64,000 nt of DNA from the NCBI GenBank assembly GCA_963724325.1, contig CAVRUH010000001.1, forward strand, positions 96,001 to 160,000. Direction: 5' to 3'. Each line of letters opens with the position of its first letter. Position 1 is the first letter of the stretch. Positions 5,150 through 18,633 of the stretch are shown here, one piece after another. The DNA comes from Waddliaceae bacterium (GTDB lineage: Bacteria > Chlamydiota > Chlamydiia > Chlamydiales > Waddliaceae). A program made the translations under genes and the position numbers. The notes under the pieces are model-generated. The model was not told the DNA's origin. It saw only the letters and a program-made list of their open reading frames with translations, and searched no databases.

Positions 5150-8100
5150 ATGGATTGTAGTCAGTTAGGGACACGTCATAGCCCGTTATATTCACGACTT
5201 GATAATAGCAGAGTGCAAATGCTTTTAGATGGTGCAAACAACTATAAATCAATCCAAGATGACCTCATAAACGGATCATTAAACCATTTGGATGCAAATG
5301 AGAAGAAACTCGTATTAGCATTTTTTGAAAAAAAGGGGTTGCTCGAACAGGCAATCAAGAATAAAGATAAGCAAGTTATCGAAATATTAATTGAAAATGG
5401 CTACGACTTAAAAATGCCCACGTTTGATTTTAATATTAAAGATCCTGATTTTTTTCTCTACCTAATACAAAAAGGCATCTACAGGGATGACACTAATGCA
5501 CCATATATTTCTGGAATTAAAAGAGCTTTATATAATTTCGACAGTATGTGGGAAGCGATCATTCCTGATCTCCTTTCACTCATGCCGATTGAAGAATGTC
5601 GTTTTGCATCAAGGGACATGCTTAACAACCTCATTGGAATAGCGATAAGAGATTCTGCAACCGCAGATAAGCTTCGTGAATTGATGCTTCGTGTGATTAA
5701 AGAAAGACCTATGGATGCTGCTTTGATAGGTACAACTCTTGTAGGACACCATTCCCCTAGTAAATATTTTGAACATTTAGTTTCGTTTGTGAAACAAGGA
5801 ATCTTGCCGCACAATGTGGCAGAAAAAATTATCACAAATTGCGATGTCGTATTTTGGCAACATGATTCAAAATCAGCATGGAACGAACTAGGAAAGATAT
5901 TGATGCCGAGCAAGGATCTTAAGTCGATCTTAGATGCTGCAGACGATTTTCAGATGGCAGTTTACATTTACAGTTTTTTAATAACTGAAAACTTAAAACA
6001 AGCTGCTCTTCTATCAGGATGGATCAATAAATATGCAGACATCATTTTGTCTATACCTAACGACTTGAAGGATCGTCTGTGCAGCCACATAAAATCATTG
6101 GAGAGTGTAGAAGGTAAAATATTTGGTGAGATTTTACCAGATACCTGCGATGAAAAAAAACTTATTCTTTGGGAGAAACTTGGATATGACCTGAATAGTG
6201 TTAATCCTAAAACGGGTCAGAATCTTCTCTTCACATCTATAGCTAATAACTTAAATTATAGCAATTCCTTACTGTCCACAAAGATTAACTTTAATCACAA
6301 AAATAATAAAGGCGATAACGCATTAGAACACAACTGCCGCAGAATAACGGACAGGTCTGTAGGATGTATTAATGGTTTGGTTAAGGCAGGACTTATCTTA
6401 AATAATTCTTTTCCCAATATAGAACTATGCAGAAAAGTTTTTCCTGACAATATGTTTCTCCAATCCATCTTGAGCTTAATTTTACTCAATCCAAGAAAAG
6501 AGGTATATCGTGAACTTATGCAAAAAATCAAAAATATAGATGTTGACGCTTTTAACGCAGGAATTGATGCACATCCTGATGTTAAAGCTCGTTTCTGTAA
6601 ACCTGAAAGAAAGAATAAAAAAACTAAGAATGACGGCGACTGGAGATCATATTATGATGCCGATGCTCAGGCTTTTCTTGAAATACGCATTAAAGAGAAT
6701 CACGTAAAAGAAGGCAAATACCTAGTCTTGGGTAAGTTATGGAATGGAAAGATTATTACTGCTAAAGACTTAAAGTTGATACCTGAAAGTCACAGAGCTT
6801 CATTGGCGCTAGGGGCAATGAAAGCCCAGATTAATGAAGATATCAAACTTAATAAATTCCATTGGGAATTTACAAACATTCTTAAGCATAATGACGTGAT
6901 TCATTTATTCCGGTACCTTTTTAAAAATCCTGAAGAGATGAAAATTTTGAAAAATGCATACATGAGATTAAATCGCATGGATATCCGAGCTCGAGGTGGC
7001 TCCAAAAGCACGTATGCCTCTTTTGTTCATATTTTCATGTCTCAATTGAATGAGTCAGAAGATATAGATTTTACTAGTCATAACGTGCCTGAAAAAAGAA
7101 GAGATGAATTTAAAAAAATATACAATGCTTATAAGAAGACCATCGTACACCCAACGGTCATTGAGACCATTAAGATAGATCCAAACTGTACATCTTGGAT
7201 CCTGGGACGTACCATTGTCGTCAAAAATGGTGATCACTGTGATGCATATAAGTTCCTGAAAGATAATGAAAATTATGATACCTTTTCTCGAGAAATGGAG
7301 GTTACGAATCTGTTTCTTTCGATGAATAAAGAGTTCAAAAGCAAATTTCATAAGCCGGTAGGTGTATATGCCCTTAAAACACTTCCTGAGGCATTTTTAA
7401 GTTATGAATCAAAGCTGCCTAAAGCGCCGCACATTGTGTACCACTATGAAGCATCCCCTCGTATCTTTGAATATCTGAACGAAACGCCAAAGGAATTGTA
7501 TCCAGAAGCACGTTTTATGTGTTTACATGATATAACTGTCTTGATACGCAAAGGGGTTTCGCCCGATTCAGCCTCACTTTTTCATAACACTGAACAAAAT
7601 AGGCGCTATGTTGGTTTGATCGATTTGGCTGTTATGGTTTGTAGAAATAATGATTCATTTAATCCTGCCGGTGGTGCAGGGCGTCTAGATCAACCACTAT
7701 TGAAAATAAAGTACTCTAACATGCGCGGAAACGGGATTACTGATTTGATTGATGCTCGTATTTTTAATATTGAAAGACCATTGGAAGGAATTACGGCAGA
7801 AATTAAAGAATATAGCAGTAATCCAAAAGCTGCCTACTTTGATCGAATGTATAACTTGTCATGCGCATTGATTGTGGACATGCTCATTCTTTATGACAGA
7901 CTTGAACAAGAAGGAATCGTTGACTGGAAAAATGAGAAATTTTTAGAGAAATTTGGAGAGGATCTTGCTGAGGGGTATGCTATTCTTTGTTCGTCCTATA
8001 CTAAGCAACCTATTGAAGAGTGGCGTCATTTTGTACTTAATTCTGGCATGGAGTGGACAGCCATGGCAAGGCAGATAGCATTTTGGTTTGATACAAGCGA

Positions 8101-8398
8101 CAAAGGTTATCCACAGTATGTGGTAGCAGGGAAATTGCCTGATGGAATTTACCCTCCTGATGCAGAAGTCATTGTTGATGATCAGGCTAGTAACTTCAGC
8201 CCTGTTGAAGGATATCGTACAAATGGCGAAAGGGATATTCTAGCCTACAATGGACCTTTGGGGCTGACGTATTTTGAGAAGGCCTTGCATGACCTTTTTA
8301 CGGTCATCATGCAGGCAGAACCCATACAACAAAAGAAACCAAAACAACAATTGGATTCAGACTTTGGAAGCATATTTGGCATACATCGTTGGTTTTAA
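5150..8398 (+). CDS. Ankyrin-repeat / SidJ-like pseudokinase (putative protein glutamylase), copy 1
   Basis: Ankyrin-like LLEQAIKNKDKQVIEILIENGYDL, GYDLNSVNPKTGQNLL, NHKNNKGDNALEH; SidJ-type motifs GRT, YKFLKDNE, LHD..LFHN..RY, GRLD..YSNMRGNGITDLID, RQIAFW, YNG..FEKAL. Confidence 0.8.
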   Translation: MDCSQLGTRHSPLYSRLDNSRVQMLLDGANNYKSIQDDLINGSLNHLDANEKKLVLAFFEKKGLLEQAIKNKDKQVIEILIENGYDLKMPTFDFNIKDPDFFLYLIQKGIYRDDTNAPYISGIKRALYNFDSMWEAIIPDLLSLMPIEECRFASRDMLNNLIGIAIRDSATADKLRELMLRVIKERPMDAALIGTTLVGHHSPSKYFEHLVSFVKQGILPHNVAEKIITNCDVVFWQHDSKSAWNELGKILMPSKDLKSILDAADDFQMAVYIYSFLITENLKQAALLSGWINKYADIILSIPNDLKDRLCSHIKSLESVEGKIFGEILPDTCDEKKLILWEKLGYDLNSVNPKTGQNLLFTSIANNLNYSNSLLSTKINFNHKNNKGDNALEHNCRRITDRSVGCINGLVKAGLILNNSFPNIELCRKVFPDNMFLQSILSLILLNPRKEVYRELMQKIKNIDVDAFNAGIDAHPDVKARFCKPERKNKKTKNDGDWRSYYDADAQAFLEIRIKENHVKEGKYLVLGKLWNGKIITAKDLKLIPESHRASLALGAMKAQINEDIKLNKFHWEFTNILKHNDVIHLFRYLFKNPEEMKILKNAYMRLNRMDIRARGGSKSTYASFVHIFMSQLNESEDIDFTSHNVPEKRRDEFKKIYNAYKKTIVHPTVIETIKIDPNCTSWILGRTIVVKNGDHCDAYKFLKDNENYDTFSREMEVTNLFLSMNKEFKSKFHKPVGVYALKTLPEAFLSYESKLPKAPHIVYHYEASPRIFEYLNETPKELYPEARFMCLHDITVLIRKGVSPDSASLFHNTEQNRRYVGLIDLAVMVCRNNDSFNPAGGAGRLDQPLLKIKYSNMRGNGITDLIDARIFNIERPLEGITAEIKEYSSNPKAAYFDRMYNLSCALIVDMLILYDRLEQEGIVDWKNEKFLEKFGEDLAEGYAILCSSYTKQPIEEWRHFVLNSGMEWTAMARQIAFWFDTSDKGYPQYVVAGKLPDGIYPPDAEVIVDDQASNFSPVEGYRTNGERDILAYNGPLGLTYFEKALHDLFTVIMQAEPIQQKKPKQQLDSDFGSIFGIHRWF

Positions 8399-18400: not shown

Positions 18401-18633
18401 AGTATGTGGTAGCTGGGAAATTGCCTGAAGGAATTTATCCATCTGATGCCGAAGTCATTGTTGATGATCAAGCTAATAACTTCAGCCCTGTTGAAGGATA
18501 TCGTACAAATGGCGAGAGGGATATTCTAGCCTACAATGGACCCTTGGGTCTGTCGTATTTTGAGAAGGCCTTGCATGACCTATTTACGGCCATCATGCAG
18601 ACAGAACCAATACAACATAGAAAGCTAGTCTGA
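15448..18633 (+). CDS. Ankyrin-repeat / SidJ-like pseudokinase, copy 4
   Basis: Full-length paralogue; 3' end overlaps the convergent rlmN by 9 bp. Confidence 0.8.
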   Translation: MDCTQLGTHNTLLYSQLDNRRVQMLLDKADDYESTRNNLINGLLSHLDVNEKKLVLAFFGNKELLEQAIYNKDKQVIEILIENGYDLKMLKFDFYIRDPDFFLYLTQKGIYSRDTNAPYISGIQRALYNFDSMWEAIIPDLLSLMPIEECRFASRDLLDKLIKIARNDSATADKLCELMLRVIKERPMDAALIGTTLVGHHSPSKYFEHLVSFVKQGILPHNMAEKIITNCNVVFWQHDSKSAWNELGKILMPSKDLKLIFDAADDFQMAVYIYSFLITENLKQAALLSGRINDYADIILSIPNDLKDRLCSHIKSLESVEGKIFGEILPDTCDHKDLILWEKLGYDLNSVNPKTGQNLLFTYIANSNSLLSTKINFYHKNNKGDNALEHHSRRLTDWSVDCINGLVKAGLVLRDSFPDVKLCRKVFPDNMFLQSFLSLILLNPREEIYHKLMQYNISIDVKAFNAGIDAHPDVKARFCKPERKDKEIKYDGNWKSYYDSDVQTFLEMRIKNNHVKEGKYLVLGKLWNGKIITAKDLKLIPESHRASLALGAMKAQINEDIKLNKFHWEFTNILKHNDVIHLFRYLFKNPEEMKILKNAYMRLNRMDIRARGGSKSTYASFVHSFMSQLNESEDIDFTSHNVPEKRRDEFEKIKNAYQRAIVHPTVIETIKIDPNCTSWILGRTIVVKNGDHCDAYKFLKDNENYDTFSREMEVTNLFLSMNKEFKSKFHKPVGVYALKTLPEAFLSYESKLPKAPHIVYHYEASPRIFEYLNETPKELYPEARFMCLHDITVLIRKGVSPDSASLFHNTEQNRRYVGLIDLAVMVCRNNDSFNPAGGAGRLDQPLLKIKYSNMRGNGITDLIDARIFNFARPLEGITAEIKEYSSNPKAAYFDRMYNLSCALIVDMLILYDRLEQEGIVDWENEKFLEKFGEDLAEGYAILCSSYTKQPIEEWRHFVLNSGMEWTAMARQIAFWFDTSDKGYPKYVVAGKLPEGIYPSDAEVIVDDQANNFSPVEGYRTNGERDILAYNGPLGLSYFEKALHDLFTAIMQTEPIQHRKLV

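Follow-up and report, generated by a model that had tools for sequence, protein, structure and literature searches.

A 64,000-nt stretch of a Waddliaceae bacterium genome (GenBank GCA_963724325.1, contig CAVRUH010000001.1, positions 96,001–160,000, forward strand; referred to here as the window) carries at 5150–18633 four intact open reading frames (ORFs) in tandem on the + strand, encoding related proteins of 1061–1086 amino acids (aa). Profile comparisons of the sequences establish that the C-terminal domain of ~380 aa is homologous end to end with the kinase-like domain of SidJ (Lpg2155), a calmodulin-dependent kinase-fold protein polyglutamylase of Legionella pneumophila (PDB 6k4k, 6oqq, 6plm, 7mir, 7ppo). 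With moderate confidence, we read the array proteins as calmodulin-independent kinase-fold protein glutamylases, probably secreted, that would act on a target other than SidE. The four genes and the predicted catalytic domain are positioned as follows.

5150–8398, + strand: copy 1 (P0001), 1082 aa, full-length SidJ-related protein
8694–11897, + strand: copy 2 (P0002), 1067 aa, the most divergent copy
12137–15397, + strand: copy 3 (P0003), 1086 aa
15448–18633, + strand: copy 4 (P0004), 1061 aa
7190–8317, + strand: predicted kinase-like (SidJ-type) catalytic domain of copy 1, ~residues 681–1056, with equivalents at the 3′ ends of copies 2–4

A phmmer search of 1.84 billion cluster representatives with copy 1 residues 660–1082 recovered 155 related proteins at E ≤1e-3 (101 at 1e-10, 48 at 1e-30). 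A profile (A2) of 20 sequences, comprising the four array domains and 16 short, mostly domain-only relatives, was compared with all PDB sequences and matched only SidJ (E 1.5e-48 to 5e-47; entries 7mir/7mis, 6plm, 6k4k/6k4l/6k4r/6oqq/6s5t and 7ppo/7pqe), the next match having an E of 0.52. Positions 21–397 of A2 align to SidJ 339–755, which is the entire kinase-like domain. In hhalign, A2 also matched P0121 (probability 100%, E 2e-40), a family member that reaches 200 bits with the NCBIfam model SidJ_poly_Glu, and it is on these two profile matches that the homology rests. A SidJ-like kinase fold had been proposed for these genes in an earlier reading made without database searches (the sequence-only reading), which had named the lack of a significant profile match to SidJ as evidence against itself; the best A2 match, in which the kinase-like domain is covered from end to end and the catalytic residues are retained, supports the proposal. 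The motifs listed in that reading (GRT, YKFLKDNE, SRE/SQE, LHD...FHN, RRY, GAGR, YSNMRGNGITDLID, RQIAFW and YNGPL) are all present and align to the SidJ residues it had assigned to them. ESM Atlas features of the C-terminal domain gave unnamed clusters and weak kinase leads only.

Upstream of the catalytic domain, a further segment of copy 1 has a possible SidJ counterpart.

6767–7189, + strand: region of copy 1 (~residues 540–680) aligning weakly with the SidJ helical base domain (SidJ 220–338)

When a full-length profile (A3; 36 full-length homologues) was compared with 6k4k, positions 531–866 aligned to SidJ 220–555, with low alignment confidence in the base-domain part; this suggests a counterpart of the base domain at ~residues 540–680.

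Active-site residues were mapped by counting along the HMMER alignment, with SidJ numbered as in the 873-residue chain. In the kinase-like site, SidJ R352, K367, E373, E381 and Y452 correspond to R687, K701, E707, E715 and Y775 of copy 1, and Y532, N534, D542 and D545 to Y855, N857, D865 and D868; in the ‘migrated’ pocket, H492, R500, Y506, R522 and N733 correspond to H812, R818, Y820, R845 and N1034. None of the mapped residues varies among the four copies, in line with the sequence-only reading, and the set includes the 13 residues published as the SidJ kinase-like site plus nucleotide pocket (as listed in a figure legend of bioRxiv 10.1101/2022.11.22.517515). Conservation is also strong across the wider family, judged on the 127 of 159 hits that cover 80% or more of the domain model (the other 32, being partial, were left out of the alignment): K367 is kept in 122/127, E381 in 120, H492 in 121, D542 in 123 and N534 in 118, while R500 is kept in 110/127, Y506 in 102 (with Phe in another 17), and R522 and N733 in 108 each. 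Several of these positions have reported roles in SidJ. K367A, D542A and H492A lose activity, and N534, D542 and D545 bind metals (Sulpizio et al. 2019, PMC6858067); R500 touches the AMP phosphate, and Y732/N733 place the target Glu (Adams et al. 2021, PMC8548325); R522 places the donor glutamate, R522A being reported to adenylate yet not to glutamylate (Osinski et al. preprint, 10.1101/2021.04.13.439722).

Two features that go with SidJ in Legionella were not found. SidJ is reported to bind calmodulin through a C-terminal IQ helix (IQxxxRxxRK), with loss of binding in I841D/Q842A (PMC6858067). No IQ-type pattern is present in any of the four copies, in which only 30–48 residues follow the YNG motif, vs 140 after N733 in the 873-residue SidJ chain. 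Of the 127 full-domain family members, 66 are built in the same way, with 500 aa or more preceding the domain and no more than 70 aa following it. As for the substrate, the SidE_PDE family (PF12252) had no match in the array’s own genome (84.6% complete; the search there covered the phosphodiesterase (PDE) part of SidE), which extends to the genome what the sequence-only reading had said of the window, namely that it encodes no SidE-like substrate. SidE_PDE was likewise found in none of the six other genomes of the same family. That the search works in Chlamydiae is indicated by its positives, in 28 of 401 sampled chlamydial genomes (25 above cut-off), and these also mean that the published statement that SidE occurs only in Legionella needs qualifying. 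Co-occurrence with a SidJ-like domain was limited to two (G267 and G380) of the 16 genomes carrying one. The chlamydial SidE_PDE proteins themselves (e.g. L036; L038, 5320–9987, − strand; L039, 1482–4655, + strand; L040, 3378–6050, + strand) are ~280–1555 aa long, one having a weak Macro-domain match, and align to SdeA/SidE/SdeD structures over the PDE part only; a SidE-type mono-ADP-ribosyltransferase (mART) domain was not detectable in the three large ones scanned.

The N-terminal ~540 aa of the array proteins are unrelated to the N-terminal region of SidJ, and with this region both a word-seeded search and a search of the array’s own genome found the four copies and nothing further. Two segments of copy 1 resemble ankyrin repeats.

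5339–5449, + strand: ankyrin-repeat-like motif of copy 1 (LLEQAIKNKDKQVIEILIENGYDL...), ~residues 64–100, from profiles A7 and A3
6179–6343, + strand: second, weak ankyrin-like block of copy 1, residues 344–398 (Pfam Ank_2, E 0.02)

Profile A3 gave many ankyrin and designed ankyrin repeat protein (DARPin) matches in the PDB at positions 50–235. With a profile of the first 250 residues (A7; 11 sequences), the signal was essentially one motif at positions 58–94 that matched each repeat of designed ankyrin proteins in turn, a few matches reaching positions 107–121. Pfam matches were all below threshold: Ank_4 at ~residues 64–100 of copy 1 had an E of 0.32, Ank_2 at residues 344–398 scored 15.9–16.8 bits (cut-off 27.3) in copies 1 and 3 only, and copies 2 and 4 had no Pfam ankyrin match. 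By phmmer, copy 1 reached E 0.07 with the ankyrin protein Bd3460, and an ankyrin match at E ≤1e-3 was seen in five of the 36 full-length homologues. A profile of residues 200–600 (A6) had no match in the PDB. For residues 120–560, the nearest named clusters of ESM features are mostly ankyrin, a lead only at a score of 0.96, since about 1 in 100 shuffled proteins reaches 0.95 or more. The region is therefore called ‘ankyrin-like, degenerate’ on these matches, with one or two recognisable repeats and no clear ankyrin domain. Of the sequence-only description of the proteins as ankyrin-fused, one repeat-like motif at profile level (~residues 64–100) thus stands, and recognisable Pfam ankyrin repeats do not. 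The first 30 residues of the proteins contain no Glu, 0–1 Lys and 4–5 Ser+Thr, a composition that is not diagnostic of secretion.

The four proteins are 80–91% identical over their full length, with copies 2, 3 and 4 sharing 80%, 87% and 91% identity, respectively, with copy 1, and no translation contains an internal stop. Identity is highest towards the C-terminus, at 86–100% in every pair over alignment columns 701–1050, and drops to 52–60% in N-terminal 50-column windows (columns 101–150, several pairs), so that the earlier picture of four tandem paralogues most conserved over the last ~400 aa can now be given exact coordinates. The C-terminal tail of copy 2 is shortened by a TGA codon, and the DNA beyond it is still similar to the copy 1 tail. 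Copies 3 and 4 are separated by only 50 bp, the spacer behind copy 1 is homologous to that behind copy 2, and the 3′ end of copy 4 overlaps that of the convergent rlmN (18625–19734, − strand) by 9 bp. DNA alignment also identified a conserved element directly before each start codon.

5075–5149 (copy 1), and ~8619–8693, 12062–12136 and 15398–15447 before the other copies, + strand: conserved element of ~75 bp

This element is presumed to contain the proximal promoter and ribosome-binding site and to have been copied with each duplication. A promoter/terminator consensus scan of the array gave nothing above shuffled sequence, and neither an Rfam match nor short inverted repeats were found in it. 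The G+C content of the array is 36.8%, vs 40.1% genome-wide (4.4th percentile among windows of equal size).

Comparison with a genome of the same genus (G195, 97% complete) shows how the array arose. G195 has the order lpdA–lipA–HEAT-repeat gene–[~1.2 kb]–rlmN with no SidJ-like gene at the syntenic site, and its sole homologue is located elsewhere (28% identity over 388 aa). The 13.5-kb array is thus a lineage-specific insertion or amplification, placed between the HEAT-repeat gene and rlmN; tandem duplication, of recent date, and gene conversion came afterwards. All four cluster as a monophyletic group (support 1.0), both in a tree of 127 sequences and in one of named and unnamed chlamydial relatives. 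Synonymous divergence (dS) between copies is 0.07–0.17, and for three flanking genes compared with the same-genus genome synonymous differences are saturated (proportion of synonymous differences, pS, 0.73–0.88). Copies 1 and 4 are nucleotide-identical over columns 681–870, copies 1 and 3 nearly identical over columns 351–550 and copies 2 and 3 identical over columns 751–800, a mosaic that points to gene conversion. The ratio of nonsynonymous to synonymous divergence (dN/dS) is about 0.61–0.82 over columns 1–540, 0.26–0.54 in the kinase domain and 0.12–0.25 in the C-lobe (columns 896–1050): the catalytic domain, under purifying selection, changes more slowly than the N-terminus. In loop columns 871–895, dN/dS exceeds 1 in three of the four computable pairs and is 1.00 in the fourth, on only 2–11 changes. 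The HEAT-repeat gene upstream of the array (4041–4841, + strand; 266 aa), the start of which overlaps the end of lipA, is kept at the same position in the same-genus genome and is therefore not part of the inserted array.

A SidJ-like domain was found in 16 of 400 sampled chlamydial genomes (one further genome, G005, was not scored), mostly with one or two matches each, and in none of 29 genomes of a small-genome family (1.0–1.2 Mb among the genomes listed). Named relatives of the array proteins are from metagenome-assembled genomes (MAGs) of Chlamydiae and Parachlamydiaceae; no relative was found in viral contigs, and Pfam revealed no informative fusion partner in the giant multidomain family members. 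The four-copy array, for which the sequence-only reading named no earlier description, has counterparts elsewhere. G101 carries a tandem pair of SidJ-like genes, metagenome contig L042 four or more in tandem (the first is truncated at the edge of the locus) and L041, from the same data set, two more, while in a related MAG (‘Chlamydiae bacterium’) copies lie on three contigs and include a tandem pair with one member split. The C-domains of L041/L042 are 61–71% identical, indicating an older expansion. Tandem amplification of the family is recurrent and independent, in at least three lineages, and the array studied here is the youngest and most homogeneous example among those compared. In two unrelated chlamydial loci (L017/L041, 3108–7304; L034, 15–1805), rpoC lies upstream of the SidJ-like gene(s), an arrangement that may reflect chance or a common hot spot for insertion.

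By analogy with SidJ, catalysis would begin at the kinase-like site, where ATP would serve to adenylate the carboxylate of a Glu side chain in the target protein. The acyl-adenylate would then move to the second pocket and be held there (H812, R818, N1034), R845 and R818 would position free L-glutamate for attack on it, and AMP would be released, leaving an isopeptide-linked glutamate, i.e. protein (poly)glutamylation. As the proteins have no IQ helix, activation is likely to be independent of calmodulin-IQ binding, either constitutive or through another factor, and the lack of this helix together with the lack of a detected SidE domain argues for a target other than SidE. The most likely target would be a protein of the protist host or a further chlamydial effector, chosen by the divergent N-terminal region. 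An obligate intracellular lifestyle, eukaryote-type repeats and lineage-specific amplification with N-terminal diversification suggest that the proteins are probably exported effectors, presumably using the type III secretion system (T3SS). A bolder version, which we regard as doubtful though worth stating, is that the four paralogues are calmodulin-independent glutamylases directed at the host, and that their rapidly diversifying N-termini, ankyrin-like and shuffled by gene conversion, each recognise a different protein of the protist. If this were true, the recurrent tandem amplification (this array, G101, L041/L042) would mark an arms race over host targets, and the array would provide the first bacterial glutamylation aimed at host proteins instead of the bacterium’s own effector.

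Several observations weigh against reading the array proteins as active glutamylases. The relationship to SidJ is remote and profile-based, as single-sequence searches were silent and NCBIfam scores fell below cut-off: phmmer of P0001 against the PDB gave no match at E up to 10, a Pfam search of the four proteins gave nothing above threshold (according to one paper, Pfam did not yet include SidJ), hmmscan of the four against NCBIfam found no family at E 0.01, NF033874 (‘SidJ-related pseudokinase’) included, and NF033873 (SidJ_poly_Glu) gave the four copies only 16.6–20.1 bits in a genome search, against a cut-off of 400. SidJ requires calmodulin and no equivalent activator site is recognisable in the array proteins, for which catalytic activity is a prediction. 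SidJ residues L516 and F518, reported to pack against SdeA (PMC8548325), are not conserved, the segment differing in the A2–SidJ alignment; the genome being only 84.6% complete, the absence of SidE from it is not absolute; and no neighbour gene, as a possible partner or substrate, is conserved across related loci. SdjA, the SidJ paralogue, is moreover reported both to glutamylate and to deglutamylate, so the fold can also catalyse the reverse process. This last point also favours an alternative that we consider unlikely overall, in which the fold and first half-reaction are the same and the end chemistry is different: stable AMPylation (SelO-type), a non-glutamate nucleophile or an SdjA-like dual role. 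Auto-AMPylation has been reported for SidJ itself (PMC6858067; PMC8548325), and the family is far diverged from SidJ, as the 17–20 bits on the NCBIfam model indicate. However, the arginines corresponding to the donor-glutamate residues R500 and R522 are invariant in the four copies and kept in most family members (110/127 and 108/127), which would be hard to explain were glutamate not the second substrate.

Somewhat less probable again is that the proteins are not exported and modify chlamydial proteins inside the bacterium, regulating an endogenous enzyme. SidJ homologues reported from free-living bacteria and archaea imply that the fold is not tied to host manipulation (PMC6858067; 10.1101/2021.04.13.439722). 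Against a role of this kind, the ankyrin-like repeats, the patchy, accessory distribution (16/400 genomes), the absence of the gene from the syntenic site in the same-genus genome, tandem amplification recurring in at least three lineages and the fast-evolving N-terminus have to be set; features of this sort typify genes for host interaction and not housekeeping regulators. It is very improbable that the array consists of duplicated DNA that is decaying or without function, or that it is an artefact of assembly. High dN/dS in the N-terminal half (0.6–0.85) and a G+C content below that of the genome would fit decay, but all four ORFs are intact, each >3.1 kb, and dN/dS in the catalytic C-lobe is low (0.12–0.25). 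Short contigs from four public runs (two studies; low-depth DNA), which may include the source sample, match within all four copies, with 32 of 34 pieces at ≥99% identity, and the copies differ by 9–20% in protein sequence, so the array is not a collapsed or duplicated assembly. Among the public runs listed for the locus there was no RNA run.

Several known or reported SidJ relatives can be compared with the array. In common with SidJ, the array proteins have all 13 published active-site and pocket residues, the large insertion in the catalytic loop by which the migrated pocket is formed, and a weak base-domain match; they differ in having no C-terminal domain with IQ helix, no SidE detected in the genome and an N-terminal ~540 aa that is unrelated, in belonging to an organism with a chlamydial T3SS rather than Legionella Dot/Icm, and in being encoded by four tandem copies, where Legionella has one gene and a dispersed paralogue. 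That paralogue, SdjA (Lpg2508), is reported to have the same fold and the same Lys/Glu/Asp triad, but it carries an IQ motif (PMC6858067) and acts on SidE proteins, neither of which applies to the array proteins. In the poxvirus OPG64/OPG74 head domains, which have a SidJ-like pseudokinase fold, the catalytic residues are replaced, whereas all are kept here. Closest in character are the reported SidJ homologues from outside Legionella, in which, as in the array proteins, catalytic motifs are kept, the IQ motif and SidE are lacking and the N-terminus is divergent. That such homologues exist, as the sequence-only reading stated, is documented for Waddlia chondrophila, an Elusimicrobia bacterium and Desulfovibrio hydrothermalis, all with catalytic motifs (PMC6858067), and the Osinski et al. 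preprint describes them as widespread, including archaea and viruses. The same preprint states that no homologue outside Legionella has SidE or an IQ motif and that the SidE-interacting N-terminal region is not conserved, and acknowledges their substrates and activators as an open question (10.1101/2021.04.13.439722).

The general message, that the active site is kept while SidE and IQ are absent, so that substrate and activator differ, is thus already in print, and the existence and general properties of such homologues will be no surprise to specialists. Neither the ~1000-aa architecture with its ankyrin-like repeats nor tandem arrays of such genes turned up in full-text literature searches (the supplement to the Osinski et al. 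preprint may list chlamydial members). The only characterised substrates of SidJ-type glutamylases are Legionella’s own SidE ligases, and the locus offers a tractable entry point to a chlamydial clade of ~1000-aa proteins that keep the catalytic core in full and lack both IQ helix and SidE, in which four adjoining natural N-terminal variants are convenient for comparative substrate trapping. The array also documents repeated tandem amplification of an effector-like family in environmental chlamydiae.

The assembly (11 contigs, 2.37 Mb) contains no SidJ-like copies other than the four array genes. Chlamydial identity is indicated by CPAF (685 bits; cut-off 250), sctJ/L/R/T and sigma-54 (rpoN). 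The nearest T3SS gene to the array is sctT (28756–29601), at 10.1 kb, in agreement with the ~10 kb estimated in the sequence-only reading, and the genes between them are housekeeping (rlmN, PtsN-like, dut, accD, phosphoketolase, ackA, metallo-beta-lactamase (MBL)-fold hydrolase and eno). The phosphoketolase is split into two ORFs (22449–23273 and 23347–24837, + strand) that match the best-scoring NCBIfam phosphoketolase models, of ~800 positions, at 8–271 and 299–794; the second ORF is in the +1 frame, in which the sequence at ~23265–23350 continues as phosphoketolase, and the split is either a frameshift pseudogene or a sequencing error. In G195, the lpdA ortholog (L035, G195:C1:809500-816500, reverse strand 3–1369) gave two abutting tblastn segments (query 15–312 and 313–470) that correspond to separate ORFs of 276 and 136 aa, and may be frameshifted.

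Further into the window, a 721-aa glycosyltransferase-family-2 protein with tetratricopeptide (TPR) repeats (33308–35473, + strand) adjoins the sctJ end of the T3SS cluster in divergent orientation. A 491-aa protein (39496–40971, − strand) adjoining rpoN and CPAF has a borderline match (20.6 bits; cut-off 20.5) to BTB/POZ, a eukaryote-type domain. At 41807–46330 (− strand), a polymorphic-toxin-type gene encodes an RHS/YD-repeat protein of 1507 aa that includes an RHS-associated core domain.

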